From Balamuthia mandrillaris (lineage: Eukaryota), in contig JAVKOQ020000103.1 of NCBI GenBank assembly GCA_031835245.2, forward strand, positions 1 through 64,000: a stretch of DNA of 64,000 nucleotides, written 5' to 3'. Below the pieces are notes generated by a model, which ran no database searches, was not told the origin of the DNA, and saw only the letters and a list, made by a program, of their open reading frames with translations. Both the position numbers and the translations under genes were made by a program. Positions 341 through 56,141 of this stretch are shown one piece after another; the first letter of the stretch is position 1; each line of letters opens with the position of its first letter.

Positions 341-723
341 ATGACCCTCACCAGGATCCTAGACCCTGCAAAACCTCTTGCAGCCTCATCATCTACCACC
401 GCTGCGGCGTGGTCCAAGGCCAAGCAAAAGGAGAAGGAATCTCACGGAAGGAGGGAGGCGGAGCCCCTGGTCATCAAGGTGCAACCCCGTTCGTGGCTGC
501 AGGTCAAATGGTTTCAGTGGCAGCTGCACACGTGCCAGTACCTCATGTTTCCCGTCGAAAACTTCCTTATGAGTGCGTTGTTTTTCTCTCCTTCCTTGTT
601 CTTTTTTGTTTTAACATTAACTTTCTTTTCTTTTCTTTCTTTGCAGATACACTCATTATCGTGGTCCTCGGTTTGATGTTCTACAGGCTGTTTGGCTTTG
701 TCTCTTCGCTTCTTCCGTTGTAA
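341..723 (+). CDS. Serine palmitoyltransferase small subunit-like protein (ssSPT family), 2 exons (341-572, 647-723), 102 aa
   Basis: Splicing the GT..AG intron 573-646 gives ...WLQVKWFQWQLHTCQYLMFPVENFLMNTLIIVVLGLMFYRLFGFVSSLLPL. This resembles the ssSPT pattern W..YQY.L.T..YMLEPWE...FN followed by a single TM helix. Confidence 0.65.
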
Positions 724-735
724 AACCACCAAATT

Positions 736-2121
736 TTAAAGAAGTAGGAGTTGTTTTTGTTGTTGTTCATGTTGTTGTTGTAGCCATTGAAGCACCTCAT
801 GCCGTCCTTCTTTACTGGCTAAGGCACAAAGATCTTCTCTCTCGACGTACTCCTTCCAAATGTGCTCTTCGAGCTGGCTCTTTGCCCATTGCAGCACTTC
901 CAGATGTCCGCCTCGAACCGAGGGTTTGAGCAAATGATGGTCCAAGACGGGATAGCGCTCCGCATGGAGGCGTTGAAGCACTTTCAGAGCGCCATCGAGA
1001 ATGGCCATCCTGTACATACGTCGTTGGTCCCATACGCACCCATTCTCTCTTGCCCACAAGGCGAGTTCTTGCCAAGAGATCCGTCCGCCATGGCGAGAAT
1101 TGTAGGAATGGCAAGAAGAGCAAGAGTGAGGTGAACGCTGTGGTGGTGGCAGAGGAACAGGGGAGGAAGGAGCGGAATGGTGATAGACGGCAGCTGTGGT
1201 GCAAGTAGTATGGTCCCAAGGACATGCGCTCTCGTGTAACCAACGAAGAACATCCAAATGTCCGCCTTGTGCTGCAGCAGCACAGGTCCTTTCATCCCAG
1301 GGACACAGTCTGCCATCCTCTCGCAACCAACGAAGAACATGCAAATGTCCTCCTTCAGCTGCGGCTGCACAAGTCAGTTCGTCCCAGCTGCATCCCTCCT
1401 CTTCTCTTAGCCATTGCAGCAGCTTCAAGTTTCCACTCCTCGCCGCCAGTCGGCACATCTTTGCCTCATTCCATGAACGACATCCAACATCCTCGCCTCG
1501 CAACCATTGCAACGTTTCCAAGTGTCCTCCTCTGGCTGCCTCTTTACATGCTTTTCTATCCTGTCTCACGATCCTCAGGAAGTTGTTGCTACCATCGTTT
1601 TCCACCCATCCCTGTAGCAACCATCGAAGAACGTGAAGGTGTCCTCCTGCAGCGGCCGCGATCCACGTGGACACCGTAAACCGTCGGCACCTTTTCTCCT
1701 CCATAAACCACCGCAACACCTCCACATGCCCGTTCTTCGCCGCAGCATCCACCACGCTTTGGTCCCAAGCCGGACGGGTTTGTGGATGGTGGTCGCTCTG
1801 TAGCAGCCATCGCAAGGTGGAGAGGTGTCCACCCGAGGCAGCCAAACGGACCGTATCCACGGTCCGAAGGGCGAAAGAGGTGGAGCCTTGGCGTCGCTGA
1901 CGATGTTGACGCTGCTGCTCCTCCTCCGCCCAAAGAAGGAGAGCGGGGGAGTGAACGAAGGCTTTGGGGCTGAGGAGCAGGCGGAGAGAGGGACAGGCGC
2001 AGCACCACCATCTGCGGCAGGTTCGGGCGGCTATGGCGATGAACTCTAGAGGCAGGAAGGAGAAGACCAAGCAGAGGAGTTCGACGGGAATGTCCTCGGC
2101 GGTGGCTATGGTTGGTTCCAT
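736..2121 (-). CDS. F-box-like plus ankyrin-repeat protein (461 aa, intronless)
   Basis: N-terminal IPVELLCLVFSFL...AARTCRRW is F-box-like. It is followed by repeated WDE.TCAAAA.GGHL.VL.WL ankyrin units. Confidence 0.85.
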   Translation of the reverse strand: MEPTIATAEDIPVELLCLVFSFLPLEFIAIAARTCRRWWCCACPSLRLLLSPKAFVHSPALLLWAEEEQQRQHRQRRQGSTSFALRTVDTVRLAASGGHLSTLRWLLQSDHHPQTRPAWDQSVVDAAAKNGHVEVLRWFMEEKRCRRFTVSTWIAAAAGGHLHVLRWLLQGWVENDGSNNFLRIVRQDRKACKEAARGGHLETLQWLRGEDVGCRSWNEAKMCRLAARSGNLKLLQWLREEEGCSWDELTCAAAAEGGHLHVLRWLREDGRLCPWDERTCAAAAQGGHLDVLRWLHESACPWDHTTCTTAAVYHHSAPSSPVPLPPPQRSPHSCSSCHSYNSRHGGRISWQELALWARENGCVWDQRRMYRMAILDGALKVLQRLHAERYPVLDHHLLKPSVRGGHLEVLQWAKSQLEEHIWKEYVEREDLCALASKEGRHEVLQWLQQQHEQQQKQLLLL

Positions 2122-2830
2122 GTACGTTCCGTGTGGCGAGTGTGTTAGCGTAATATTTTTTTGTTTGGTGAAAAAGGGGAAAAAAAAGCCTTTTCATACC
2201 TCTTTATTTCACGCTCGCTGCTACAGGTACGAAACTACGAAAGCACAATAGCATGGTTGGTCCTGGGCGGCAGCATTCGCCCTTCTTTCTCATGCTGCGC
2301 TTTCTTCTCTCTTCGTTTCAGATTTTCATAATAATCTTGGATTTATTCGAACATTTCCAATTTTTTATCATTGCCCAACAATTTATTTCCGTTTATCACG
2401 CCGAGTGATGAGGACATCTTTCAAAAATATCAATAATTATCACGGATAACATTATATATAATATGATCTTAGATCACAATTATGAACTAGATAATAACCG
2501 ACCAATCCGGAAGCGGCGTGACGTGTGTCGGTTCATTCATTATAGCCCTCATTTAATTTTTTTTAAACTTGCAATAAAAAACGAGGACACACCACGAAAG
2601 AAAGAAAGAAAGGAGAGAGAAGAAGTCCGTTGCGGCAGAGTCAAGTTCCGCTTGTTTATTCTGTTGTATTGTTGTTTTTGGGTTTTAGTTTTTCTTTTGT
2701 TTTGTTTTTCGTTTTTTTTTAAAAAAGAGAACGTTTTATTGTAACGTTTTTTTTCATGTATTTTTCATTTTAAAGGAAAGAAGGGAGAGACTCCAAGGAA
2801 CTTTTTTTAAAAAAAACACCACAACCAAAG

Positions 2831-5800: not shown

Positions 5801-8800
5801 GAGCAAGAGTTTGAGAAGTACTTTCAAGAGTTGAAGAAGAAGAGCAAAAACTCCGAGTTCTACGAACGCTACAAGCAAGGAAAGAATCCGAGAAGGAAGA
5901 GCTCCACCGCCGGTCGAGCTACTGGCCTCGATAAGCTCTTCCACTCCTCTTCCTTCACTGTTTCTGATTCGGGTGAAGCGGTGGCTTCGAGGAGCGAAGC
6001 TGCTGAAAGTGGAGGTGAAGATGTGGAAGAATTGGAGCAACTCTTTTGGGAGTACTATGAGCGACCTCCTGCGTTGATTGTTCCTTCTTCCTCGTTGAAA
6101 CCAAAGAAACAAGAAACGGCTCCAACCGAGAAAGAAGAACAGCAGAGCAACAAAGAAAAGAAAGAAGAAGGAAAAGGAGAAGGAGAAGGGGAGGAATCAG
6201 CAAGGAAGAAGACCGTCGTCATCGTCGAAGAGAAACAAGAACCAGAACCAGAACAACAAACGGAAAAGACAGAAACCAACGAAACAACAGACAACAACCC
6301 CGATGCCCCTTCTCCGACACCAGTTGTGCCCGATTGGGAAAAGCCGACAGACGTGAAGTGGCATGTCGAAAGAGGAACTATCCGTCATTTCGCTCCTGGC
6401 ACCAAACATCCGCTTGAAAGCGTTGATGAGTTTGTGCCTTACTATCGCAACTTCTTCCAAGACAAAGGTTTGCATCTTCGCTGCCTCTCCCTGCTCTTCC
6501 CGCTCCTCTCTCTGCCATTCTCTCTCCTTTCCTTTCTCTTTTCCCTTCTCTGCTTCTCGTTCGATATCGCTCTGTTCCGTAACAACCTTTCAATATACAG
6601 ATCACACAAGCTACTTTGCGGATGATCCGCGGGTTGGACCTATAATAGTTTCCATCGAAGAGAAGAAACGAGCCACTGGCTCTATCTTTCAACGACGAGT
6701 GCCAGAAAAAGGAAGCATCCCCTCGCAACAACAACCATTCCAAGGCGGTAGCCTTACCCCTCCTCCTCTTAAACGGCACAACAGCGCTGAGCTGGAGTCT
6801 TCTGGAACAGAAGGCTCCGCTGCAATGGAAGCTTCCGGCAAAGAAAAAGAGAAAGGAAGTGCGTTTGGGAAGTTCAAAGACATCACTACGGCTTCGCTTC
6901 AACCATGGAATCTGTCTTTCGACATGAGGAGGAAACGGGAGAAACACTCCTCCAAAGAGGGACTACCCACAACGAACGACGAGAACGAGGAGGACAGCAG
7001 CGATGATGAAGGCGCCTCTTATTCTGCCTATTCAGCTGCCGCCAAGTTTGGCAAAGGCTTTAAACGAACTTTAGGTTTACGAAAGAAAGAAGATGCCAGC
7101 AAAGGAAGTCTATATAACCTTCGTGATCATCTAACTCCCTCTTCCTCTTCTCTCGGTTCATCCTCCTCTTCATCTTCTGCCTCTTCCTCCTCATCTTCGG
7201 TGCCCATTCTTTCAAGCTCTGGCGGGCATTCGGTCTCGTTTGCCGATTTGGCGGTCTCTTCGTCTCCTCCTGAGGTGCCGGGTGATGATGATACCTCTTC
7301 TGCCTCTTCTTCTACTCCAGCTCAAAACCTTGATACCTCTGCTCCTTCTTCTTTGACTTCCACCGCAGAAACTCCCGCTTCCTCAACGCCTGTATCATCT
7401 TCTTCGGCCCCTTCAACACCCTCTGATCCTGCAACAATAACAACAACAAACGCTCCTTCTGAGTCTTCTCCTGGCTCTACTCCTTCTCCTGTCTCTTCCA
7501 ATGCTTCAGCTTCTGCTCCTGCTCCTTCCGACTCTTTGACCACAACCTCAGAAATACCAGTCGAAGCAACGCCTTCTCCTCGCGTTTCTGACGGAGCTGT
7601 GTCAACTGCACCGAAACTCGCTCCAGAACAAGAAAGAAGAGAGAAGTTCATTAACAGGACGAAAGAGAAGAAGAAAGGCTCCTCCATCATGTCCCTCAGT
7701 TCGTTGCAAAGCACCGCCAGCACTATCAACAACAACGTTGTCGTCAACCCGTTCTCTCAAGCCGCGAAGCTCATGAGTTGGACCACCGAAAACAGAGAAA
7801 CAGCCTTTCGAGTTCTCATTCAAACGAAAAAGGTTATATTTGCTGAATGTTCTTTATGTTCTTTTAATAGTGTGTTCTAAACGTCTTCTTCTTCTTGTTC
7901 TTTTTAACAAAACAGGGAGAGAAACAATTGTTCATTCGCAGCGGCTATCACAAGAAAGAGAAGATCAAAGCGATCAAAATGGCGTGCCTCGCGCATGGCA
8001 TCTTCCACAAGGAGATCCCTCCTGACCTCAAGTTTTCTCCTTTGAAAGGTTTGTTCTTCTTTGTCTTTGTCTTTGTCTTTGTCTTTGTCTTTGTCTTTGT
8101 CTTTGTCTTTGTCTTTGTCTTTGTCTTTGTCTTTGTCTTTGTCTTTGTCTTTGTCTTTGTCGTATAACGCTCTCTTCTTTTTGTTTCCAGAGTCAGAACA
8201 ATTGAGAGCCGAGATAAGCAAGTTGGAGAAGAACTTCATTGCCAACCGATACAAGTTTGGAGTGCTTTATGCTTGCAAGGGCCAAACTGAAAACCAAATG
8301 TTCAACAATCGTACGTCCTCTCTTTCGTTCTTCGTTTTTATTCACTCTAGCTTAACACTCTGTCCTTTCCTCCAACGATTCTTTTTGGTTAAAAGGTGTT
8401 ACAAGCGAAACATTCAACAAGTTCCTTGAGCTGATGGGCCAAAGAATTACTCTCAAAGGCTGGAATGGCTACACAGGCGGTCTTGACGTCCGAAGTACTT
8501 TTTATCCTCCTTTTTTTTCCCTCCTCCTCCTTCTCCTTCTTCTTCTTCTCGTTTTGTTTAACAAGTGAAAAAAAAAACCAGATAACACAACAGGAACAGA
8601 AAGTGTCTTCACAACGTTCCAAGAACAGGACGTAATGTTCCACGTGAGCACTATGCTCCCTTTCTTCCCCGAAGACGAACAACAAGTGGAGCGAAAACGG
8701 CATTTGGGCAACGACATCGTCGTCATCGTTTGGTTGGAGGGAGGAGGCACGTTTGACCCTTGCATCCTCAAAACAAAGTTCAACCACATCATCGCGGTGA

Positions 8801-9237
8801 TCTCCCCGTTGGCAGCGGAGAAAAGAGAGGAGGAGAAGAAGCAAGAGGAAGGAGAAGCCAAGAAGGAGGAGAAGCAAGGGGATGGAAAGATTGCCGTGAG
8901 GGTGGAATTTGCGGCGAGGGAGGGGGTGAAGCCCTTTGGACCGCAACGATTCAACTCGACCAAGTTTGTGTTGGATGAGACCTTTAGAGAGTTTTTGCTT
9001 ACCAAACGTAACGTTTCTCTCTCTCTCTCTCTCTCTCTCTACTCTCTCCTTCTCCTCCTTATTTTATTTTTTTTTTCTCTGTCTATGCTTTCTTATTTTA
9101 AAGTAACTTTTAAACAAAATATAGTTATAAACGGAGAAAGATCAGCTTTGCGAACGGCTCCGGTGTTTGCCCAAAAGCTTCAGACGACACGCAAGACCAT
9201 TTTGCAGGACATCATTCAAACGCATGCCGCCAAATGA
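2831..9237 (+). CDS. Rap/Ran-GAP domain protein with a long Ser/Lys/Glu-rich low-complexity N-terminus (multi-exon)
   Basis: Exon 1 is 2831-6467, exon 2 is 6601-7832, then short exons. These encode YKFGVLY, GWNGYTGGLD, MFHVSTMLP and RKRHLGND (Asn-thumb motif), FREFLLTK and NGERSA. Stop at 9237. Confidence 0.9.
8059..8161. repeat. (TTGTCT)n microsatellite in a RapGAP intron
   Basis: Perfect hexamer tandem repeat. Confidence 0.95.
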
Positions 9238-9783
9238 AGCCTTCCTTTGCTTGTTTTCTCTCTTTTGTTTTTTTGTTTGTTTACCCCAAAAAAATAATAC
9301 CTGTATTTTTTTCTTTCTTGTTCCATCTCTTCTTGTTCTCCTTCTGTTCCTCTTCTTTCTGCCATTGTCACCTCTTTGTTTTCTTTTCTTCCTTCTCTTG
9401 GTTAAGGTTATTCTTGTTCCTCTTCTCTCTTCCGTGTGATGGTCCTACAAAGGTTTGCTTGTTTCCAAATGTTTGCTGGCGCAACAAAAGTTATGAATGG
9501 CCACTTTCATCCTTATTCTATTGGGGAGAAACGGGTTTTTAAGTTCTTCGACGTAACGCTGAAAGCTGTGTGTCTAGGCTACTGTTGTTATAGAAAAATA
9601 TAAAATATTTTAAAATATAACAAATATAAAATAAAAAAATAAAAATTAAAATCCAAAATTTTCAATTATTATCCACAAATATTGTATTTTTGAATATTTC
9701 GATAGAGGTAATAATAATTCGAAATGTTGCTTTTTTTATCTCAACATCTTAGTTTCCGTCTCTCCCTCTTCATCCTCTTCCAT

Positions 9784-10476
9784 CTACCACCGACGATACG
9801 GCAAGTACTTCCCTCGGTAGGTGATCCTCACTCTGGACTCTTTCTTCTTCTTTCCTTCCCCTTCTTGTTCTCCTTCTCCCTCTAGTTCCACTTCTCCGCT
9901 GGCCTCCTTATCCTCAATCCTCTCCACCTTCATCTGAAACGATACCGCGCTCATGATCCCGTCCTTGCCGAACTTCTCCTGGATGACGTCCTTCAAAGGA
10001 AGACCGTAGACGTGGAGGATCTCGAAGAAGCGGTACATGGTGGGATCGGTGGGAATCTCAGGGGAGAGAAGGCCGCGGGTGAGGGGGAAGTTGTTGAGCT
10101 GGTACAGCACCTCATCGTCCTCCTGGAGGTGAAGCGCTTTGGCCAAGTCCATGGTGGTCGTTGCATTTGCCTTTGTATCATTTGATGTCAGCAACACAAA
10201 AATAGCGACAAAATAGGCTGAAGAGAGATGAGGTACCGAAAGCTGGTTGTAGACAAGCGCAGCCACCCAAGTGTCCGACTTGTCGAGCATCTTTCCGAGC
10301 CTCTCCCACGTCAACCCAAGCTGTTGCTTCATGCTCAACATGCGCAACGTTCCCGTGGGCAAGTCATCCAGGGAGAATATCTTCGACGCGGAGGAGGTGG
10401 AGACGAAAAAAGCGCAGCCTATCGCCAAGACAGCCGCGATGCTCCACAGGGCCTTCACGTAGTTGCTCCTCTTCAT
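9784..10476 (-). CDS. cynS: Cyanate hydratase (cyanase), copy 1, with N-terminal signal peptide; intron 10171-10236
   Basis: HTH-like K..LGLTWE.LGK...KSDTWVAALVYNQ segment. C-terminal PTDPTMYRFFE...EKFGKDGIMSA...RVRITYRGKYLPY. Hydrophobic leader ALWSIAAVLAIGCAFFVSTSSA. Confidence 0.9.
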   Translation of the reverse strand: MKRSNYVKALWSIAAVLAIGCAFFVSTSSASKIFSLDDLPTGTLRMLSMKQQLGLTWERLGKMLDKSDTWVAALVYNQLSVPHLSSAYFVAIFVLLTSNDTKANATTTMDLAKALHLQEDDEVLYQLNNFPLTRGLLSPEIPTDPTMYRFFEILHVYGLPLKDVIQEKFGKDGIMSAVSFQMKVERIEDKEASGEVELEGEGEQEGEGKKKKESRVRITYRGKYLPYRRW

Positions 10477-10857
10477 TCTCTATGTTCTTTCTGTGTGTGT
10501 GGTGGTATCCAAAGTTGATGGCTGAAAAATGAAAAGGAACGAAAGAGAAACGAAAAAGATATAAAAAGCTTCGAGTGGCGGAAGGAAGAGACCCATAAAA
10601 GGTAGAAATGTGGACGAAAATTCGTTAAAAAGAGGACATAAGAATTCCGATTGGTCCATTCGAATTAATGAATCGATTTTGATTGGTTGACGCTTCATAC
10701 TGATTTCCTTTTTGGGGTCACTATTCTCTTTGAATTTCTCTCTGTTTTCTCTTCGGGGTAATGCATAAATACTTGCTCCTCTCTCTGTTGCGTCTTTACA
10801 TTTTTTCTTCTCATCCATACCAACTGAACCAGGACAAACCGACGGAGGAAAAAAAAA

Positions 10858-11703
10858 ATGGCATTACACAAATTTGCTGCATTCGCATTACTCTTCTTTT
10901 CCGTGGCCTTGGCGGTCTCGGCAGTCGATCCACATGACTTCCTCTCTGGCTTCATGGGGGACCAACAGTTTGCAACAACGGACCAGCTCGACCAACAACA
11001 CAGCTATCGACACCACAAGGATCCTGCTTTCGGCTCAGGACTTCCCGTGCACCAGGAGCTTTCTCTTGCGACCATTACGATGCTGGAAGCCAAGAGCGAG
11101 AAGAAGTTGACCTGGGATGATTTGGGAAAGTCGGTAGGACAGGACCCTATGTGGGTGGCTTCGCTTGTTTACAACAGTGCTTCTGTAAGTTTCTTTCCTA
11201 CTCTCTCTCTTCTCTCTTTCTCCTGTCTCTTCTCTTCTTAGGTGTTTATTTCTTTTAACATTTTAACTTCTTTTGAACTTAAGGCTAATAAAGACATTGC
11301 CGACAAGTTGATGGAAGCTTTGGGTCTCAATGATAAAGACCACAAATACGTCCACAAGCAGCTCGTCCGTTATCCCTACAAGGGAGGCTTGGCCCATCGC
11401 CTTCAAGTGCCCTCCGATCCTCTGCTCTATCGCTTCTGGGAGGTCATGCAGTCCTACGCAATGCCCCTCCGCGACATAATGTTCGAACGTTTCGATGACA
11501 AAGGTTCGTTTTTGTAGCTTTTCTTGGTCTCTTCTCTTTTTCTCATTCCTGATGCCAACTAAACTAATATAGGAGTTGGCGGAATCATGAGCGCTGTTGA
11601 CTTTTCCATCCAAGTGAAACAGTCGGAGGAGGTCGGAGACGATGAACACCCTTGGGTGGAGGTCGTGATGGAGGGCAAGTGGCTTCCTTTCGAAGCTTGG
11701 TAA
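10858..11703 (+). CDS. cynS: Cyanate hydratase (cyanase), copy 2, with signal peptide; exons 10858-11184, 11284-11503, 11573-11703
   Basis: MALHKFAAFALLFFSVALAVSA leader, then EAKSEKKLTWDDLGK..G.DPMWVASLVYN, PSDPLLYRFWE, GGIMSAVDF, VEVVMEGKWLPFEAW*. Confidence 0.88.
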
Positions 11704-11913
11704 ACAACCAACAAAAAGCAGAGGCATATTGTTGTTTATTACAATGAGCAAAAAACAATGAAACAAAACTCGTTTCCATGTATTTGAAAGAATCTCATAC
11801 CAAGACACAGTGGTGGAGATCTGCTCGGAATAGGCGTTGCAACATGCCAGAGCAACCGGGTGTCTTGGGAAGTTCTCAGAGTACCTGCAACTGAGCAGGG
11901 AAAAAGCAAGGAG

Positions 11914-12165
11914 CTATTCTTGTAATAACGAGTCTACAAGTTGAATCTGATAAGTTAATTGCTTCTTCTTCCAAAGAGAGAAAGAGTTGTCCCAAACGAG
12001 AACATAACGCCCTGGTCGATCTATACTAATCGAACCCTGAACGGGTTCCACGTGCGAGGCGTGTCTCTTCAGAGGCACGATTTCGGTTCTGTTCTTTTGC
12101 TGCTTGTGGTTGTTTGCGTATGAGAAATGAGGAAAGAGAGAGAGAGAGGGAGAGGGAGAGGGAGA

Positions 12166-12216
<51 letters not shown>

Positions 12217-14490
12217 AGGGAGGGAGGGAGGGAGGGAGGGAGGGAGGAGGGAGGGAGGGAGGGAGGGAGGGGGAGGGAGGGAGGGAGGGAGGGAGGGAGG
12301 GAGGGAGGGGGAGGGAGAGGGAGAGAAAGAAAGAGAGGGTGGGAGAGAAGGAAATTGCATACTCCTTCCTCTTGACTGAAGACGCCGAAAGATATGTCAT
12401 TGTCTACTGTGCTGAACTCCCATGCCAGATTCAAATTCGAGGCTTCCACATTTACAACCACTTCATGCACAGCTTTAAAGAAACAAGTTAGAAGAAGAAG
12501 AAGAACAAGAAGAAGGAGAACAGGAGAAACAAGCAGAACTAAAACAACTACAAAGGATGAGGAGAAGACCAAGAATATAATGCACCTTTTCTTCCAACCA
12601 TTACCTGAATAGGCAAACGGTTCGTTCCATTTTCTTCTCGTTCAACTCCATCAAAAGCGCCTCCGCCAGGAATACAATGTCTCTCCGATGCTTCAGTCGC
12701 CTTCTCATCTTTTTCTTTGTTTTTACTCTTTTCCATCTCTTCTCCTTCGTTTCCTTCATTTTCTTTTGGGAGAAAAGAACGATAGAGCACTTCCTGTCGC
12801 TCTGAGTCCCAAAAAGGAACAACCACTTCTGTTTCGTCATGAAAGTATCCCTGACAGGAGGTTCCTCCACAGTCGCAGTTGCCTCCGTACGCTTTAGGAA
12901 GGTTATCCTCATGGATGGCTTCCACTAAAGCCTCTTTGTAATCGGCTCCTAACACATGTACCTGGTTTTGTTTTAACGTTAGGTTTTTCTGTGATGCACC
13001 GAGAGCAAGAGCGAGAGCGAGAGCGAGAGAGTGGGAGAGAGGGAGAAGCGAGAGAGAGGGAGAGAGGGAGAGAGGGAGAGGAGGAGGAGGAGGAGGAGGA
13101 GGAGGAGGAGGAGAGGAGAGGGAGGGAGGGAGGAGAAGAGGGAGAGAGAGAGAGAGAGAAGAGAGAGGAGAGGGGGAGGGGGAGGGGAAGAGAGAGAGGG
13201 AGGGGAAGAGAGAGGGAGAGAGAGGGAGAGAGGAAAAGATAAGGAAAGAAATGACAAGAAACTAGAAGGAACGATAAGCAATAAAGAACGACAAGGAATG
13301 TCGAAAAAAGAGACAAATAACCACCTTGCTAAGAGTCTTTGGGTCTAATAAAGGTCGGATCATACGAAACGCCATTGTAAACAGTTTTGGTGCATTGATA
13401 ACATAAAACGCTTTCAAGCATTCTGTTTTCGTTTTCGTGTTTGTTAAAGTAATGCTAAGAAAGTAAGAAAGAACAAACAAAACTAAAACTAAAGCCAAGT
13501 TTAAAAAATAAATAATAATAATTATAACAAACCAGGATAGTTGGCTTCATCGATGGCAACAATCTGTTTGAAGACATCGATGGCAGGGCCGTGCATGTGC
13601 GACCATCCCAAACCCGCCAGGTCCGCCACTATCACTTGTGGAAACTTGTTCGTGCCTTCCTTGCTGGACATTTCTTTCTTTCTGTTCATGTTTTTGTGTT
13701 TGTGTGCTTGATGAACAAGAGATACCAACAACAAGTAAAAGAACAGCACAAATAAAGAAGAACAGACGCACAAAAGACGAGCGTATTCCTGCTGCCAGAC
13801 GTGATACCGGATGCACTCCTCTTTGGGAACGGCGGAGACCAAGGCCTTGGCATCGGCCACCCCTATCCGCTCGAAGAGAACGAGGCTGCCCTCTCGGTCG
13901 GTCTTGTGGAAGCGGGAGGGCCAGTAGCGATGAAGCAGGAGGAAGTAGTCGCTCTTGGGAGCTTCCTCCAAGATGTTGTCTGCTCCGACTTGTTTTCTCC
14001 ATTTCTTTTCGTGGTTTTGTATTTTTAAAAGAAAAAAGAAAAAAGAAAAAGAAAAAGAAAAAGAAAAAGAAAAAGAAAAAGAAAAAGAAAAAGAAAAAGA
14101 AAAAGAAAATGAAAAAGAAAAAAGAAAAAGAGAAGAAAACAAACCAACGAAGCGGAGAGCATGTCTTTGGCTTTTTGCACGTTTTGGTGGCGAGCCCGAA
14201 GAAAACGGCGAACGGTGTAGTCATCGTGGATGTCCCTGTCGAACTCTGGTGTGTCCTCATCGGCGGCCAACAAAGCCAACACCTCCTTCACTCGCTTTTT
14301 TTTTTTTGTGTGTGAAGAGCGTTACCGATAATTTTGTTAAAGATGAAGATAAGAAATAGTTTCAAAAAAAAAAAAGTGAAGAACAAAAAACCACCACACG
14401 CTGCGAACGCGTAAAAAAAACATTTACCTCCGCTTCCTCTTCGCGAAACTTTTGTTTCTCCTCCTCCGTTCGCTCCTTTTTGCTTCTCAT
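11914..14490 (-). CDS. Sec14/CRAL-TRIO lipid-binding protein with C-terminal GOLD domain (multi-exon)
   Basis: DDYTVRRFLRAR (CRAL-TRIO N), HKTDREG, IDEANYP, YVINAPKLF, VLGADY, LPKAYGG. GOLD segments WEFST.DNDISFGVF and PGRYVLVWDNSFS. Confidence 0.9.
12134..12346. repeat. (GA)n/(GGGA)n polypurine tract in a Sec14 intron
   Basis: Simple repeat; the ORFs predicted across it are artefacts. Confidence 0.9.
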
Positions 14491-18789: not shown

Positions 18790-18895
18790 AAAAACATAAG
18801 AAAAGAAAAGAAAGACAAACGAAGAAGAGAAGAGGCAAACTTTGTCCAACGTTGTAACTTGGGAAACGAATCGAAAAAATCTTCCAAAAAAAAAA

Positions 18896-19720
18896 ATGAA
18901 GTCCGTCTGCGTTTTCTGTGGCTCCAAGGAAGGCAAAAACCCCGACTTCATGTCCGGCGCTAGGGCCATGGGGGAGGAGCTGGCCGCTCGCGGGCTCTCC
19001 TTGGTCTACGGCGGAGGGACCGTGGGGTTGATGGGAGCGGTCTCCCGGGCGGTGGTGGCCGGCGGAGGGGAGGTCACGGGCATCATCCCCCGCGCCCTGG
19101 CTCCCAGGGAGATCAGCGGGGAAATGACGGGCAACACCATCTTTGTCTCCAGCATGCACGAGAGGAAGGCCATGATGGCGGAGAAGAGCGACTGCTTTGT
19201 GGCGCTGCCGGGCGGCTTTGGGTAAGCAAGAAGATCAATTGCTTTTTTTTTCTTTTTTTTTTTTGAAGTGAAGGAATGAAAGAAAGAAGACGCTGAGAGC
19301 GGTTTGATGCATGTTCACACAGAACGTTTGAAGAACTGTTCGAGATCATCACCTGGCTTCAATTGGGCATTCACAACAAACCCATTGGTACTCTTCCTCT
19401 CTCCCATTCCCTTCTTTGCTTCTCTGGTACTAACAGCGTTCTCTGTTGTCCCCGCCTTTCTAGGATTGTTGAACATCGAGGGCTACTACGAGCCGCTGTT
19501 AGCGTTGGTGCAACGCGGCTACGAGCAAGGCTTCATCGGAGAGGAATACAAGGACATGCTCGTCGTGGCCGACAACGCCAAGGACCTTTTGGATGGCCTC
19601 GAGCGGCATCAGCCTCCTCCTCCCATGAAGAACTTTGATTGGAAGAAGAAAGCAGAAGAAGAAGCAGAAGAAGAAGCGAAGGAAGAGCAGCCAGTCCATC
19701 TTTCCATGAAGGAAACGTGA
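18896..19720 (+). CDS. LOG: LOG-family nucleotide 5'-monophosphate phosphoribohydrolase (cytokinin-activating type), 3 exons
   Basis: SVCVFCGS, LVYGGGTVGLMG, MHERKAMM, ALPGGFG|TFEE (PGGxGTxEE split by an intron), TWLQLGIHNKPIG, LLNIEGYY. Confidence 0.92.
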
Positions 19721-30668: not shown

Positions 30669-30856
30669 TAGCATGGCGTGCCTCTGTTCGTTTCTTCCCT
30701 TTTTTTCTTTCTTCTCATCATAAAAAAAAATGTGTTGTTGATGGGATTTGAACCACCGAAATGTGCTTCTGGGACGACATGAATATTGATAATATATAGG
30801 GTCGACGTGAGAAAGAGTTTCGTGTCGACACAAGACTTCCTCAAAACACAAAAAGG

Positions 30857-32939
30857 ATGGAAGACGAAGAGGTAGCGCGCAGGCGATGCCGACGGCCGAC
30901 CTTCTTTGTGGCGGTACATGCTGGGGCGGGGTACCACGCTCCCAAGAACGAGCGGCGCTGCCTTGGTGCGATGAAACGAGCTCTTCTTATGGCAGCCTCT
31001 GCCTGCGCTTCTGGTTCCGTCGAAGAAGGAGAGGAGGTCGCGCTTGCCATGGTGGTCTCTGCTGTCTCTTCTCTTGAGGACGACCCATGCTCTAACGCTG
31101 GTTTTGGTTCGTTTCTCCCTTACTTTCTTTTTGTTCTTTTTTCCTCCTTCTCCTCATTTAAAAAAACCAAACCAAAAACAAAAAGATCAGGCTCCAACTT
31201 GACTCTCTGTGGAAAGGTGCAGTGTGATGCGAGCGTGATGTTGGGACAGGACCAGTCCTTTGCTGCCGTGGGGGCGGTGGAGATGGTGCGGAATCCCATC
31301 AAGCTTGCGGCTGCGTTGCTTCAGCGGGACCGCTGCGCCTCCCTCTCTCTTGGAAGGATCTCTCCTATGTACTTTTTTCCCGTTGCTTCTTCTCTCTTCT
31401 CTGCGTCTCTTCTCCCTTCTGTCTTATCTGCTTCTCTGCTTCTCTTTTCATTTCTTCTTCTTATAAGTTTTCACCTCAAATGCAGTTTTCTGGTGGGAGA
31501 AGGAGCACATGAATGGGGTCTGAAGCACGGTGTGGAAGGGGTGCTTGCTCCTCTCAACGAAAACCGCACCGCTTTGGTCAGCGCAGAGGCCAAAGCCACC
31601 TGGCAACGAAGAATGTCTTGGGTGGAACAGGCCGCTCTGCGAGAGAGCGCTTCTTGTTCTTCATCATCTTCCTTATATGCTTCGTTTTCTACGTATTCCT
31701 CTCGCCAAGAAAGAACAACGAACGAACGAAAGAACAGAGATGTAGAAAAAGAAGCAGAGAACGAAAACGAAAACGACAACAAACACACGAAGCGGAGACG
31801 AACCAACAAAGACAAACAAAATGAAGAGGCTCCCACGAAAGAAGAGAACCCAGAAAGAAGAGGAGAAGAAGAAGAAACAGGATGGCTGCAAGATACGGTT
31901 GGCGCCATTTGTGTGGTGGGAGGTGCATTTACAGCCGCCGCTGTTTCAAGTGGTGGCATTTCTCTCAAACATAGTGGTCGCGTTGGTGAGGTGTGTAGTC
32001 TTGTTCTGTTGTTGTCTTCTTCTCGCTCTCCCAACCATTTAGTGTGATTTTTGTTCTTGTGTTTCTGTTGTTATTTCTGAACACCTTTCTCGTGATTCTT
32101 TTTATTTGATGCATCAAAACAGGCAGCAGTATATGGGAGTGGCTGTTGGGCCAAAGATGCATCGTCTTCAAACCATGGCTTCGCATGCAGTGTAAGCGGG
32201 ACAGGAGAAGACATCATGCGCCATATGTTCGCTTTGCGTTGCTCACAAGCATTCTTTGCTTCTTCTTCTTCTTCTTCTTCTTCTTCTTCTTCTTCTTCTT
32301 CTTCTTCTTCTTCTTCTTCTTCTTCTTCTTCTTCTTCTTCTTCTTCTTCTTCTTCGCATAAGGAACAACAACAAGCAGAGGAGGAAATTGCACTTGCGAC
32401 AGTGATTCAATCCTCGGTCGACAGCTTTTTGAAAGAACAAAGTGAAGGAAGAGAACGACGAAAGAAACGACAACGGCCACAACAGCTTCAGCACCAAAAC
32501 TCAAGCCCTGTTAACAACAACGATCGGCCTCACGTTGGAGTTATCGCTCTTTCCGTCTTTCCAACATCCTACCCTTCTTCCTTAACAGAGGAAGAGGAAG
32601 AGGAAGAGAAGCAAGAACAAAAGAGCGAAGGCGGCGAGTTTTGTTGGAGCCACAGCACCCCTTCGATGGCGATCGGCTACTTTAGTCATACTATGAAGAA
32701 ACCAAAGGTTTCGTTTCTTCCTTTTGCTTGTTATTATTTTCTTCTTTTTCTGTGCCTTCTGTTGCTTGTCCACTTCTTCTCCTCCTTCTTCTTAATGTTA
32801 AGCTGCCTCTACCGAGCAGGTGTTTATATCACGGCTGAATGGCAGAGAAGCAACCACGACTAGCATGTTGCCTTTTTCTCAAGTTTCAATGAACGATGCA
32901 ATGAAGAGGAGAACAAGAACAAGCATAGGAGGGGGATGA
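30857..32939 (+). CDS. TASP1: Taspase-1-like threonine aspartase (Ntn-hydrolase, asparaginase-2 family), multi-exon
   Basis: FVAVHAGAGYH, LEDDP..NAG.GSNL, CDASVM, autocleavage site D/TVGA, SSGG..LK..GRVGEAA.YG.GCWA, SGTGE. The exact end is approximate. Confidence 0.85.
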
Positions 32940-36086: not shown

Positions 36087-36461
36087 CAGTCAAACTTTGC
36101 GTAATCGTGGTTGTAAAGTGATTTTCAGGTTTGGAGGCCTTCCGACTCTTATAGTAGGGGAATCCTCTCCCCCCCACTTATGGGTTCTCGTTTCTTTTTA
36201 ACTGAAACGATCTTAAAAGGCAGAGAGAGAGGACAGGGAGAAGAGAGGAGAGATAAGTGAAACGCGGGGCAACAAAAGAGTGAAACATGTTTTCACTGCA
36301 AGCCCTTGGACTGTAAAGGGACAATCTACATTCTCCATTCTAAAAAAGCCACAGAAACAAACAAACAAAGAAAGAAAAACCAAAACCAAAACCATACACA
36401 TGTGAGAGGGCAACTATAGGCCACTGCTTGGCTTCATGCCACCGTATTGTTTATCTGCTTT

Positions 36462-38440
36462 TTACGAGTCTGAATCCTCATACTTGAGGGTGGAGAGCTT
36501 CTTTCCCTGTACTCTCGTAACCTTGCCGGACTTGGGCTGAGACTTTCCGCTGGCGGTGCTCTCCATGTTGTCCATGCTCCTGGCACTGCTGGAACTGCTT
36601 CCAGTGGTGCTGAAGGGAGAGCTGCTGCAGGTGAAGAGCTTCCACCAGACGAGGTAGATGCGACGGCTGGTGCCGAAGATGAGGAAGACGAAGATGCCTT
36701 GGCCTGCAAAGTTGAACGCTGCCAACACCCACAGCGGATAGTTGATCTGTTTTGTTTTGTTACGTTCACTGAAAGCACAGAGAAAGACAAGAGAGAGAGA
36801 GAGAGAGAGAGCAAAAGAAGACTTACTTCGCTGCTCAGATCACAATAGACAGCGTTGGCGGCAGGCACAGCAGGGAACCCCATCAAACGCACCCAAAAGT
36901 TCTCCGTGGCGGTCTTTCGGAAGAGGCACTGAATGTACTCCTCGTAATCCTCGTATTGGTCGTTACGTCTGTTCAAGAAGTCCAGTTGGAACGCAAACAA
37001 GAAGACGCAGACCCAAATATACAAGGCCAAGAAGGCGAAGATCCTCCACTGGCCCTTGATGAAGGTCCAGAAGCCCTTGATGCCAGTCTCTTGCCGAAGC
37101 TGGAAGATGATGACCACCAGGATGAGAATCACTCCAATGGCCACGCAAGCAATGACTGGCATCCAGAACAAGACAAAGTTCCACACATTGGCCGTCTCAC
37201 CTTCCGTCTCTACGCCGTCCCCTTTGCCGATGACGAATTTCAGGGCGTTGTCCTCATCCGAGGAGTGAATGGTGCACCACAAGTCCGATCCGTTGGCTCC
37301 CAGTCTGTGTGCTGCTAAGCTGATGATAAGGGGGATCAATGGGATAACCCAAGCAAAGATGTGGTAGCTGGCCATCAAGATGTTCCTGTTGGTGGTCCTC
37401 TTGTAGTCGATGCTGCGAGCGGCAAAGATCAGCATAAGGAAGATGTTCACGCAGATGACCAACCACCAGAAAACAGCTGCGATGAAGAAGTACACAACAA
37501 GGATGCCTTGCACCGTGCACGCGCCATCTCCAAAGTAGTTCGGGTCTTCCTCGTTCTCGCACAACATGTCGTGGGTTCCATCGGGCAGCACGCTGGCCAA
37601 ACAGAAAGCAAAGGAGAAGCACATAACGGAGATGAAGAAGAACATGGGCAGGTGGTTGGGGAACTTCCGCTTGGACGGGTCCAGCATATAGGTGATGACG
37701 AGGAAGGCCATCAGCACCAAACTGATCCAAGAGATGCCACTCATCATGTCCGTGATGGTGTCGAACTCATCGTTGTCCAGAAGAGGTTCCGGGCAGTTGA
37801 AGGCGCACGTGCCTCCTCCCGTTCGGTGCATGTTGTCAGGACAGTTGTATGGAGGAATGTCTGGCTCATGAAAGGAATTAGCTAAAGAACAAGAAGAAGA
37901 AGAAGAAGAAGAAGAAGAAGAAGAAGAAGAAGAAGAAGAAGAACAGGAACAGTACGTACAAGATATATCTCTAGAGTCGCCGTAACATGTGTCCTCAAAG
38001 ACCCAAGTGTCTCCGTTCGGAGACTCCACGTTCAGCAACACCTCTGGGCCATCTGGGAAGACCACCACATCCGTTGAGTTGAAGAAGAAGGGATTGGGAG
38101 GGTTGCAGGCAAAAAAATCATCCCTATCAGGGGGAGGTACTGAGCTTTCGCAGGGTTCAAAGTGAGCATAGCACATGTCGGAGCAGGGGTAGCTTCCCAC
38201 AACGGCTATCTCGTCAGGGGTTGGGTTCTCCGGGTCGGCGGCATTGGGGGAGACCACCTCTTGGCAGCGGCGGTAGAAGATGGGGCAGGTAAACCTGGCC
38301 GAGAACACGCGGCAGTTTTGGTTGGCAATGCTTACCAGCGTGCTGTTAAAAGTTTGTTTTCGTTTGTGTTATGTTCGGCGTTTTGTTATCCATTTTTTTT
38401 CAAGGATGTTAAAAGAAAGAAGGGAAACGTGACGAAACTC

Positions 38441-44343: not shown

Positions 44344-45598
44344 CCTGAAGAATGGATTCTAAGAGATCAGCACTGACAGCATCTCCGGAAGAACGGAATC
44401 GTGCAATCGTTTTCGGTGTGACGTCCAATCCTCTTGCCTCTTTATTTAAATTTCAGGAATATTACAATGAGTGAAAGGCAGAGAGGGAGAAGCGAGAAAG
44501 AGAGAGAGAGAGAGAAAGTAAGAGAACGGGATGTACCATGAACCATGTGTTCAATGCAAAGCCTTGCCATGATATTGTTGGCCGTCTGCGAAGCGCTTTC
44601 CCAGAGTCCATCCTGAAAACGAAAACAAAGAATGAAATTAATATTTCAAAAACTAACTCACAATACTAACGTACATGGGCTGGCAAAGCCCCATAGAACG
44701 AGTCCAGCTCCTTTAATCTTTGTTGCAACAGGCTATAATGCTTGGGTTCAATGGGTAAAGTGGTTAAGGCCCTGATTGACGAAGAAGAACAAGAACAAGT
44801 ACAAGAGGAACAAGAATAACAAGAACAAGAACTAACAATAATAACAAGGCAAAGGCGAAAGAAGGAGGGAAGAAACGAACCTTGGCTTCATCGGCAGCCA
44901 CCTTCACAAAGTCATCATAGAATTCTTTGGGCAGGTTCTCTTTGTGGAACCTGGCGATTATGTCCCATGATAAATCTATTGCCTGGGTTGAATCGTTTAA
45001 CCAAGCAACTTTGCAGAGAGCAGAGAGCAGAGAGCAGAGAGCATAGCGGGGAGAGCGGAGAGAGCAGAGCAGAGCAGAGCAGAACGAAGGGAACATGGAG
45101 AAGAGAGGAGGCGGAGAAAAGGAACCATGGACTCTATGTGAACCAAACTGTGCAGCATGGCCTGTCGGGACGCCAAGGTCCCCGCTTTTCCTCTGGCAGG
45201 CATCTTGTGCGGAGGCAAGATTTCCACGTGGTCCGGTCGAGCCGGTCGCTCAGGAGCCGTCGCGCTGCTTCCGATTTCTTTCACGCTGCAATCGATCAAA
45301 CAATCAACAAAACACAAAAAAAAAAAAAAAACAAAACAAAAACAAATAATGAGCAAACCTTTGGCTTTGCCACAAAGAGGCAGCGCGAAGGGTGAGCTGA
45401 GCCTTTTGGTCGGTGCTGGCCGTCCTCAAGATCTTTTCCGCCCAATCGGTGATGGTGGTTGGCTCGTGAACTTCTGCAGCTGGAACGGGAGATCAATTGA
45501 ATACCACACTCGGTCCAGAAAAGAAAGAGAAAAAACAAAAAGGTGAGGAATGAATAAGGAGCGAGAAGAAGCCAACCTGTTTGGGGTTGTGGTTGCAT
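43950..45598 (-). CDS. DUF455 family ferritin-like protein (multi-exon)
   Basis: PERPARP, LHSLVHIE..AIDLSWD..ARF, DEAKH, HDGLWE, EARGLD, DEITHV..G.RWF, LKPPFN..AR..AG. Confidence 0.85.
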
Positions 45599-50318: not shown

Positions 50319-52966
50319 ATGAAGTGGTGCGCTCTGCTTTTGCTATGTCTCCTCCTCCTTGCCTCGGATCGCGGTTCGCTCCTTTCCTTTTCACTCCCTT
50401 CTCCATCTGCTTCCTCTTCTTCTTCCCTGCTCGCTCGGTATTGAGATGTCTCGCCGCGCATCCAGAAGGGTCCTCGGCGCATGCTAAACGAGAGGAAAAG
50501 AAAGAAGGCCGCTTTGATGCTTTTCTCAGCCCATCTCACCCCGACGCAAAATGTGTGAACAAGAGCGAGGTCAACTTTGGAGACACAGGCTGCGAATATT
50601 TCCTCACCTACGACATGATCTACACTGTGCCTGGGGTGAAGCTCCCCAACCAAACGGAGGACGGCATGGAATTCTGGCGCGAGGTGCTGAGAAGGTATCC
50701 AGCCAGTGAATCCTCCCCTCCTTTGTTTTTCTTTGTCATCTTTTCTCCTTTTGTTTTTTCCTTCATCTCTCTCTTTTTTCCCGGCTCTAGGCTATCTCTC
50801 CTATCTTCTCTCCTGGCACTTATCCTATCCTCTCTCCTATCCTCTCTCAAAACCTACTCCTATCCTCGCTCCTATCCTCTCTTCTATCCTATCTCATATC
50901 CTCTCTCATATCCTCTCTCCTGTCCTTGCTCTTGTCCATCTCCGTAGACTTATATTAAAAAATAACAAACAGCTCCACCCTGACGGCGATAGCCAACCAA
51001 GCATGCAGGATCCACGCAGCGCGCTACATGTGCCCGACCTACTTTCGGGAATGCCGAGAGGTCGTCTCCCCCTACGCCGATCCCACCCATTACTCCAAGG
51101 ACCAAGTGGCTGTGGTCGGCAACTACGCCTGCCGCTATCTTTGTCGTGAGCACAAGGAACCTTGCCAAAGCAGCGTGCCGGACCAGTACAAAGACGTTTT
51201 CTTCAATTGCGATGTCCCCAATCCCTACTACTTTGATGAGACTATTTATAACATCTTTCCTGAGGGGCCGGACATGACGGTTCAACTTACAGCCCCAAAT
51301 AATGACACTTGGGCTTATGAGTTTCAGTGCTACGATGCTAGTCATGATATTTCTTGTACGGTTCCTTTTATTTCTGCTCTTTGCTCTTCTCGCGTTGGTT
51401 TTTGTTTCTCGTCTGTCTCTTCGTCGTTCTGTTTATCTTCTTCGCATTTCTTCTCTTCATCATCTCTTTTCTGGTTCTTTCGTTTCTCTTCTTCTCTCCT
51501 CTTTCACTCTCCAACCCTCGCTTGTGTCTCCCTCTCCCTCTCCCTCTCTATTAATCGGTACATAACAGATATAACTCCGTTCAACTGTCCTCAAGGGATG
51601 CACCGTAATGAAGACGACAGCTGCTCTTTTAACTGCCCAGAACCTCTCCTCTCCAACAACGAGTTCAATACCATCACCACCATGATGAGTGTTGTTTCAT
51701 GGATCAGCTTGGTCATGATGGCCTTCCTCATCCTCACCTACCTCATCGATCCCACCAAACGAAAGTTCCCCAACCATCTGCCCATGTTCTTCTTCATCGC
51801 GGTTATGTGCTTCTCCTTCGCCTTCTGCCTGGCCAGCATGCTCTCTGATGGCACGGAGGAGATGTTGTGCGAGAGTACGAACAAACCAAACTACTTTGGA
51901 GATGGAGCATGCACAGTGCAAGGCATCCTCGTTGTGTACTTCTTCATGGCAGCTATATTGTGGTGGTTGGTCATAGGCTTTAACATCTTCTTGATGATGA
52001 TCTTCGCTGCCAAGGGCATAGATGACAAGAAAGGCCACCGGGAACTGTTTTTGCAGCTCGGCTATCACTGCTTCGCGTGGATACTTCCTTTGCTTCCAGT
52101 GATAATCGGTTTGGCAGCACAGCGACTAGGAGCGAACGGATCGGACTTGTGGTGCACCATTCATTCAACGGACGCAGACAACGAGTTGAAGTTCGTCATC
52201 GGAGAGGGTGACGGGATAGAGACGGAAGGAGAGACGGCCAACGTGTGGAACTTTGTCTTGTTCTGGATGCCCATCGTGCTCTGCATTGTGATTGGAGTGT
52301 CCTTGATTATTGTGGTCATCATCTTCCAACTTCGACAAGAGTCTGGCGTGAAAGGCTTTTGGAAATATGTGAAAGGACAGTGGAGGATCTTTGCTTTCTT
52401 GGCGCTGTACATTTGGGTCTGCATCTTCTTGTTCTCCTTCCAGTTGGACTTCATGGGCAAACGACACGATCAGCATGATGAGTACGAGGAGCACATTCAG
52501 TGCCTCTTCCATAAAACGGCTTCTGAGTATTACTATAAAGAAATAGAACAGGTGCCCGTGCCAGAAGATAAAGTGTATAGATGTGAGGTGGACTCTAAGG
52601 TATGCTCTTTCCTTGTTCTTCCTATCCTCCTTTCTGCCTCCCTTCTCCTTCCTCCTCCTCCTCCTCCTCCTCCTCCTCCTCCTCCTCTATCTGTAGAGGA
52701 TATACTGACCCAAGAAACAACAAATGTAGATTAATTACCCGTTGTGGGTGCTAGCAGCGTTCAACTTTGCGGGCCAAGGCATCTTTGTCTTTCTCATTTT
52801 TGGTACCAGTCGCCGTATATACGTCGTCTGGTTGAGGTTTTTCACCTGCACAGCGCGACCCTTCACGGCGACTGCCCAAGACAGCGTTACTAAAATACGG
52901 ACTCTGGCAACGAATTCCACCTCGGCACTAACGACTAAGTTCTCTGAATCGCAATCCGTGGAATAG
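50319..52966 (+). CDS. Frizzled/Smoothened-like GPCR, copy B
   Basis: Same 5-exon layout and motifs as copy A; leader MKWCALLLLCLLLLA. Confidence 0.9.
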
Positions 52967-55803: not shown

Positions 55804-55846
<43 letters not shown>

Positions 55847-56141
55847 CTCCCTCTTAATAACAAACAAACAGATAAACTATCCGTTGTGGGTGTTGGCAGC
55901 ATTCAACTTTGCAGGCCAAGGCATCTTCGTCTTCTTCATCTTCGGCACCAGCCGTCGCATCTACCGTGTATGGTGGCGGCTCATTACCTGCCGTCCCATT
56001 GCCTTCAGCGTCACAGGAAGCAGTTCAGCTAGCATGGAGAAAGTGGAGGGCGGCGCCAAACACGCCTCGAAGACAGGGAGCAAGGTGACGCGGGTGAAAG
56101 GAAAGAAGTTAGCAGCTATCAAGAATGATGATTCGGTGTAA
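53720..56141 (+). CDS. Frizzled/Smoothened-like GPCR, copy C
   Basis: Leader MKTLSILIVFCLFF, CRD exons, 7TM exon 54725-55755, terminal INYPLWV exon. Confidence 0.9.

Follow-up and report, generated by a model that had tools for sequence, protein, structure and literature searches.

Leader-bearing cyanase genes arranged head to head in Balamuthia mandrillaris: predicted export and a possible two-subunit enzyme

The cyanases (CynS; EC 4.2.1.104; PF02560) of E. coli (1DW9), Thermomyces (6XGT), and Arabidopsis and rice (CYN) share a two-domain fold, a catalytic Arg/Glu/Ser/Ala set and an intertwined dimer. In the part of PMC7801690 that treats assembly, known cyanases are pentamers of dimers, with each active site drawn from four monomers; there, and in the corresponding part of PMC3070753, they are described as homodecamers only. 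Sections of PMC7801690 also assign catalysis to Arg, Glu and Ser (with the Ala that follows), based on the Thermomyces structure and mutants, and report that changing R to K or S to T kills the activity of the fungal enzyme. The substrate is hazardous: cyanate reacts with groups on proteins, and its sources include urea, carbamoyl phosphate, and the oxidation of cyanide (PMC7801690, same sections).

Cyanate and bicarbonate bind at shared sites, according to the binding section of PMC3070753. These shared sites lie on a symmetry axis. This, in turn, means that the roles of cyanate and bicarbonate are inseparable in a homodecamer. A natural two-subunit cyanase, if there is one, would make their separation testable.

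Here, a locus is described that might encode such an enzyme. Balamuthia mandrillaris, an amoeba belonging to the Centramoebida, carries two cyanase genes head to head within a window of 64,000 nucleotides (contig JAVKOQ020000103.1, positions 1 to 64,000, all coordinates below being those of this stretch). Gene A starts at an ATG at 10476 on the minus strand and gene B at an ATG at 10858 on the plus strand, with 381 bp between them. The features are as follows.

9784..10170, minus strand: A exon 2, with sequon N82, catalytic R127/E130/S154, an insert at about residues 168-190, and a basic last strand (R195, R199)
10171..10236, minus strand: A intron (GT-AG, phase 0), 66 nt long, open in frame with no stop codon
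10237..10476, minus strand: A exon 1, which encodes residues 1-80 (the leader plus the helical N-terminal domain) and is covered by RNA of X7 and X8
10387..10476, minus strand: A leader, residues 1-30, basic at its start, then with a 17-residue hydrophobic core and small residues at positions -3 and -1; a signal peptide or a type II anchor by prediction
10477..10857, no strand: shared upstream region, 381 bp, with a presumed promoter role
10858..11184, plus strand: B exon 1, residues 1-109, covered by RNA
10858..10923, plus strand: B leader (residues 1-22), a cleavable signal peptide by prediction, covered by X8 reads
10924..11055, plus strand: B post-leader segment, residues 23-66, rich in Asp, His and Gln, conserved between copies
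11185..11283, plus strand: B intron 1, 99 nt, phase 0, at the codon position of the A intron
11284..11503, plus strand: B exon 2, with catalytic R159/E162
11504..11572, plus strand: B intron 2, 69 nt, phase 1, required to yield the annotated B protein
11573..11703, plus strand: B exon 3, with catalytic S189 and an acidic last strand (E212, E216)

Both spliced products agree with NCBI proteins, and the divergent pair with its 381-bp spacing, as first proposed by the initial annotation, holds. The 208-aa product of gene A is identical to KAL6063680.1 (P0001 in our set), and the 225-aa product of gene B to KAL6063681.1 (P0123); both are annotated as Cyanate hydratase [Balamuthia mandrillaris]. 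Across 177 aligned columns, the two proteins share 36% identity. The first intron of each falls after one and the same aligned Ser (A 80, B 109), as had also been claimed. Additional to that earlier description are B intron 2, the segment of about 45 residues behind the B leader, and the charged insert in A.

Two further annotated A/B pairs, with consecutive accessions (KAL6051970/71 and KAL6058045/44), encode proteins 94-95% identical to those of the window, and are probably alleles or come from other strains. A and B are adjacent in all three annotated copies.

The A insert (9841-9909, minus strand) is rich in Glu, Gly and Lys and lies in a hairpin turn; its length differs by three residues between P0001 and P0122. 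The B segment is modeled with a pLDDT below 50 over most of residues 33-64. Between copies, residues 23-66 of B show one amino-acid change against seven silent codon changes (among the read differences listed). A pro-segment or a sorting segment is a possible reading of this stretch of sequence.

Both genes are transcribed. The RNA data come from raw-read runs X7, X8 and X9 of the same species (3-5% of each run) and from X2 contigs, compared over 9900-11190; the reads belong to alleles or strains other than that of the window, and the libraries seem to be unstranded. This interval received 18 reads from X7, 31 from X8, one contig from X2, and none from the 3-5% of X9 that was covered. Read depth spans both exons of A and exon 1 of B, and is zero in all four runs between 10516 and 10823. 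At B intron 1, three X8 reads and one X2 contig leave the genomic sequence at 11185 and resume with the letters of exon 2. Bin 10164-10207, over the A intron, drops to a depth of 0-0.27, with no joint above the listing threshold. Depth in this intron is low in X7 and X8, and it is nonzero; its retention would lengthen the product to 230 aa by adding 22 residues, most of them hydrophobic.

The leaders themselves are covered. Reads from X7 reach bin 10472-10515, past the ATG of A, and reads from X8 begin in bin 10824-10867, which holds the ATG of B. The X2 contig stops shortly past the B leader, at 10927, and contigs, of course, cannot reveal where transcripts start. In X7, B is covered from bin 11044 onward only.

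The differences between these reads and the window are mostly silent in the mature proteins: 16 silent and one replacement in B, eight silent and two replacement in A (among the read differences listed). Together with transcription, this makes A and B look functional. Pseudogenes and bacterial contamination were considered as well, and are ruled out by the introns, the eukaryotic neighbors, and the silent changes.

The shared upstream region holds two CCAAT-type motifs (10650 and 10682) and a TATA-like motif (10560). With starts 381 bp apart, reads for both genes in X7 and X8, and an empty gap between them, the bidirectional promoter put forward by the initial annotation is a candidate only; the read counts are too low to bear on co-regulation. 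Rfam gave no match within 9000-12500. A scan for sigma-70 promoters found none, but such a scan is unsuited to a eukaryote.

A and B are cyanases by family membership, with bicarbonate-dependent cyanate breakdown as the predicted activity. In A, the Pfam Cyanate_lyase profile matches at E=1.5e-25 (89.2 bits, cut-off 25); in B, two exon pieces match at E=6.9e-7 and 5.7e-10 (29.4 and 39.3 bits), so that A and both pieces of B stand above the cut-off. The N-terminal profile CYNS_N reaches 16.2 and 15.2 bits, below its cut-off of 27.1, with unspliced pieces as the queries; in the models of both proteins this domain forms five helices at high pLDDT. Foldseek matches of the B model to cyanases span its full length, and cyanases make up all 14 of its best PDB matches. 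The C-terminal domain of the A model was of low confidence (mean pLDDT 62), and was left out of fold searches.

The YR..E and MSA motifs attributed to both proteins are there, and the catalytic set is intact (A R127/E130/S154/A155; B R159/E162/S189/A190). Because mutation of R to K or S to T in this set abolishes activity in the fungal enzyme, its presence in both A and B argues for unchanged chemistry. B has, of course, oddities that suggest otherwise. It is the longest branch of our 30-sequence tree (2.13), it has a four-residue insertion directly before the GIMSA loop, two nearly invariant Gly residues are exchanged for Ala and Asp in it, and Trp replaces the usual Arg at the start of its last strand. 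These might mean that a mixed complex would be no ordinary cyanase, with B as a regulatory subunit or one of altered specificity, or with the pair acting on another small anion. Given the intact residues in both proteins and the cyanase fold of B, this is highly improbable.

What sets A and B apart from known CynS proteins is a combination: hydrophobic leaders, side-by-side paralogs, opposite charges in the last strand, the B segment, and the A insert. The leaders are considered first.

Leaders were scored as the best 11-residue Kyte-Doolittle mean within the first 40 residues, a heuristic joined to sequence inspection rather than a trained predictor. By this measure, A scores 2.71 and B 2.73, and the four Balamuthia sequences range from 2.71 to 2.95. 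A comparison set of 118 ordinary short cyanases has a mean of 1.39 (SD 0.32) and a maximum of 2.0. By inspection, both leaders have a basic n-region, a hydrophobic h-region, and small residues at -3 and -1. The B leader has a textbook layout and ends at Ala22. The A leader has a longer core and ends at Ala30; it could alternatively be an uncleaved type II anchor. The signal-peptide-like character ascribed to both leaders is supported, and RNA reads cover both.

The leaders also evolve as signal peptides typically do, drifting quickly while retaining hydrophobicity. Between copies of B, six changes fall in the 22 leader residues and five in the other 203 (odds ratio 14.9, p=1.5e-4); between copies of A, four fall in the first 31 residues and two in the next 135 (odds ratio 9.9, p=0.012). 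The leaders therefore vary 10-15 times more than the mature parts, while staying non-polar; in B, every leader change is to a residue that remains non-polar or small.

These leaders might, conversely, not be ER signals. A would then be mitochondrial or anchored in a membrane elsewhere, and B would be cytosolic, starting from Met33, which does lie behind its leader (A has no Met between residues 1 and 46). Several eukaryotic-type cyanases, including that of the amoeba Pellita catalonica, do have arginine-rich extensions that resemble presequences to the eye. Those extensions, however, score no more than 1.65, as against 2.7-2.95 in Balamuthia; RNA reads lie over both leader ATG regions; and the changes between copies stay non-polar. 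Further, a type II anchor would still leave the enzyme part of A in the lumen. This makes the reading very unlikely, and entry of both A and B into the ER is predicted with good confidence.

Other sequence features bear on where the enzymes might go. A has an N-A-T sequon (N82). The corresponding site can be located in 154 (of 266) non-Balamuthia cyanases, and P0176 is the one among them that shares the sequon. B has no N-glycosylation sequon, and neither C-terminus shows a retention or anchor motif in its sequence. The phagolysosome, which the initial annotation had offered alongside secretion, is a doubtful and less likely site, because most characterized cyanases prefer near-neutral pH. Rice cyanase, though, has its optimum at pH 5.7 (PMC3070753).

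How unusual is a leader on a cyanase? The survey took the best 150 of 809 cyanase representatives at 50% identity, and scored 147 further representatives. Of these 147, 113 match the N-terminal domain; an extension of at least 15 residues is present in 42 of the 113, and a hydrophobic leader scoring at least 2.5 in five, including a protein from the nematode Plectus and bacterial-type sequences. One fragment also has such a leader. Leaders on cyanases are, on sequence grounds, uncommon but recurrent. The idea that those of A and B are unique was accordingly dropped.

The initial annotation had held that characterized cyanases lack signal peptides. In full-text searches (subscription papers being mostly outside them), no listed paper describes a signal-peptide or heteromeric cyanase. 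The five in 113, and a fungal cyanase that came up in a secretome study (below), weaken the initial view. With leaders in about 4% of diverse cyanase clusters, the handling of cyanate beyond the cytosol seems to be more frequent than the searched literature reflects.

For two eukaryotic cyanases, export has been raised. That of Thermomyces lanuginosus was found through genome and secretome analysis, as a brief mention in PMC7801690 has it, and that of Trichinella is stated to be without a signal peptide in the portion of PMC9079694 that covers it. Passages of PMC8569187 and PMC10471605, with one supplementary file each, hold no mention of cyanase, though the full annotation tables of these papers may include A and B.

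None of 81 cyanase loci inspected has a hydrophobic leader (highest 1.95), and neither a leader nor a head-to-head pair appears in the best 80 of 488 alignment-scan matches, drawn from 36 of 64 parts. A viral scan gave one locus (L001), a cyanobacterial-type cyanase at 997-1371 of a 4.7-kb IMG/VR contig with 31% GC. Atlas searches returned cyanase clusters only; one, of 97 bacterial cyanases of about 185 aa, commonest in Nitrospirota, is longer than usual and possibly leader-bearing.

The searches also turned up cyanases of other unusual designs. Seven eukaryotic-type sequences (P0218, P0190, P0191, P0229, P0239, P0272 and P0318), with Pellita catalonica among their sources, have presequence-like extensions, and organellar cyanases may be common. 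Fifty-one long proteins (395-2000 aa) are mostly fusions, with many ABC-transporter ATPase-cyanase fusions among P0125-P0172; P0156 joins a substrate-binding protein to a cyanase. These may be real fusions or frameshift artefacts. On a 2.8-kb metagenome contig (L077), two different leaderless cyanases face each other (655-1107, plus strand; 2286-2741, minus strand).

The nearest relatives of A are cyanobacterial-type CynS proteins, such as P0058 from Synechococcus sp. FGCU-3, at about 40% identity to the read-through query. Unlike A and B, these have no hydrophobic leader in the 118 short matches, and their last strand is of ordinary charge. P0176 (173 aa, on a 934-base JGI contig) resembles A in its leader (3.37) and its N-A-T sequon; it differs in having an ordinary positive/neutral pair at the two strand positions discussed below, and no partner on its 934-base contig. 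A metagenome scan with P0176 as the query gave no relative.

Four other proteins, P0233 from Plectus sambesii together with P0228, P0186 and P0182, have hydrophobic N-terminal leaders (2.5-2.8) as A and B do, but show no charge split and are placed elsewhere in the trees (P0182 in the 113-sequence tree only). Leaders probably arose separately in these. P0233 (UniRef A0A914V2X5, A0A914UTS8) is a nematode cyanase with a signal-peptide-like leader. P0182 (cluster member HHT9153878.1, Ca. Hypogeohydataceae) is a 372-aa chain with a leader and two tandem cyanase units, each with YR..E and MSA motifs, a bacterial pseudo-heterodimer in one chain.

Two trees were built, a quick one with 113 sequences and a careful one with 30 (21 of 51 aligned rows dropped). 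In the quick tree, A, B and P0176 group at an SH-aLRT of 89, inside a cyanobacterial-type group at 91. In the careful tree, the wider cyanobacterial-type group stands at 87/80 and the group of A, B and P0176 at 79/93 (not starred); Pellita, another amoeba, has a cyanase that falls outside this group. A and B are both long branches.

The initial annotation took the shared intron as showing duplication within a eukaryotic lineage. The shared intron site does favor this; the careful tree neither rejects nor shows it (p-AU 0.36 for a clade of A and B). Repeated transfer of cynS is already documented in the passages of PMC8776842 and PMC9079694 that deal with it. A history in which a cyanobacterial-type cynS was transferred, then gained a leader and an intron, and was then duplicated would fit these sequences, on long branches of modest support.

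The other distinctive feature of the pair is charge. Over the last strand and tail, A carries a net charge of +6 and B one of -2, both outside the 0 to +5 spanned by the scorable relatives (206 of 266). At two positions, which precede the final GK motif by five residues and by one, A has Arg/Arg and B has Glu/Glu. Inspection of A and B by eye first brought out this pattern, and the two positions were chosen ahead of any dimer model. Opposite charges in A and B at two facing positions of the last strand are what is new here.

A complex of two A and two B chains, the only composition run, was then modeled with ESMFold2. It gives A:B dimers with a score of 0.71 (best of three controls, 0.00), with contacts that agree at least 81% between runs and a partner pLDDT of 80 or more. 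The mark used for this score was passed, in calibration, by 51 of 78 solved pairs and 2 of 108 mismatched pairs (39 of 65 and 2 of 126 in eukaryotes), and by close cousins of the true partner in 10 of 12 cases. Contacts in the best run include A R195 with B E216, A T197 with B V214, and A M153 with B R159. In the model, the last strands of A and B run antiparallel, and the same register brings A R199 beside B E212; the catalytic Arg159 of B adjoins Met153 of A, one residue ahead of the catalytic Ser of A.

In that register, a homodimer has two like-charged pairs (Arg-Arg in A, Glu-Glu in B), and the heterodimer has two Arg-Glu pairs. The charge term is +2 for AA, +2 for BB, and -2 for AB. Among 3741 pairs of representatives, which are not independent of one another, 2 match this complementarity when any two of nine positions along the strand may serve.

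There are, of course, reasons for caution. Like charges at both positions occur in 3 of 87 representatives (two ++, one --), near the expectation from column frequencies; like charges are thus no bar to homo-assembly. By itself, covariation among these 87 does not show that like charges are avoided there. Cyanase homodecamers have, moreover, already been solved (14 PDB sequences), and the passing score may reflect a memory of them. With these structures solved and cousins usually passing, the model shows register and plausibility, not preference. The initial guess of a hetero-oligomer is helped by the opposite charges and by the model. Our judgment, drawn from sequence and model, is that a preference of A and B for the heterodimer is an even call.

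The competing view, next in rank, is that A and B are both exported but assemble separately, as an acidic and a near-neutral homodecamer that would serve distinct compartments, pH values, or stages of life. Each does have a complete catalytic set, and like-charged self pairs are tolerated in those three representatives. B has Lys198 where the family has Asp; this residue could neutralize Glu212 inside its own chain, an internal swap of charge in a protein with its own extra segment. A alone has the sequon, plus its own insert. The mature net charges differ (A -3, B -12). B:A coverage is also unequal in X7 and X8, though the reads are very few. This view does not explain why the two proteins sit at opposite extremes of the family charge range at the same facing positions. 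Further, the best 2A+2B run chose A with B, and the genes are adjacent in every annotated copy. Separate homodecamers are, for these reasons, somewhat unlikely.

The proposal of a mixed, exported enzyme would then run as follows. The leaders would carry both proteins into the secretory pathway, where A:B intertwined dimers, with A R195 predicted to face B E216 and A R199 to face B E212 across the dimer axis, would assemble into an A5B5 ring. With five positions, AA and BB dimers cannot alternate; by this geometry a regular mixed ring needs A:B dimers, and its only regular form would place every A subunit on one face and every B subunit on the opposite one. Each active site, normally two-fold symmetric, would have two unlike halves, and cyanate would be broken down outside the cytosol. 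That A and B form such a secretory-pathway A5B5 cyanase, with ER entry and heteromer preference holding jointly, is the favored reading, yet tentative, its chances being put a little short of even.

The role of this enzyme would presumably be to remove protein-carbamylating cyanate in a near-neutral lumen, at the cell surface, or in the medium, rather than to gain nitrogen. Nitrogen scavenging as the main role was rejected, given that phagotrophic amoebae excrete ammonia. The cyanate sources named in the initial annotation (cyanogenic prey bacteria, urea decay, host thiocyanate oxidation) are candidates only.

A stronger version holds that the exported A5B5 assembly is obligate. It would then be the first two-subunit cyanase, with the two-fold site split into a cyanate-tuned and a bicarbonate-tuned half. 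This is unlikely, in our estimate. If true, it would represent one of several independent origins of undescribed exported cyanases in amoebae, nematodes and bacteria. A true heteromer would also be a compact case of the passage from homomer to heteromer through reciprocal changes in charge. Balamuthia is a human pathogen, and A and B point to an undescribed, non-cytosolic detoxifying enzyme (as predicted); no link to disease is indicated here.

The neighborhood offers no evident gene pointing to a cyanate-linked pathway. Of the 300 filtered long frames in the window, 101 were compared with Pfam, and no carbonic anhydrase, rhodanese, or anion transporter is among them. The genes nearby encode a Rap-GAP (8569-9234, plus strand), a CRAL/TRIO protein (13525-14220, minus strand), a LOG/lysine-decarboxylase-like protein (18800-19717, plus strand), an Asparaginase_2 (30800-32044, plus strand), and a DUF455 protein (44767-45425, minus strand), together with ankyrin, MORN, SH3, kinase and phosphatase genes. 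The window also holds five genes for Frizzled/Smoothened-like receptors, one at 36437-38368 on the minus strand and four in tandem on the plus strand (50959-52731, 54694-55854, 57854-59014, and 60582-62444).
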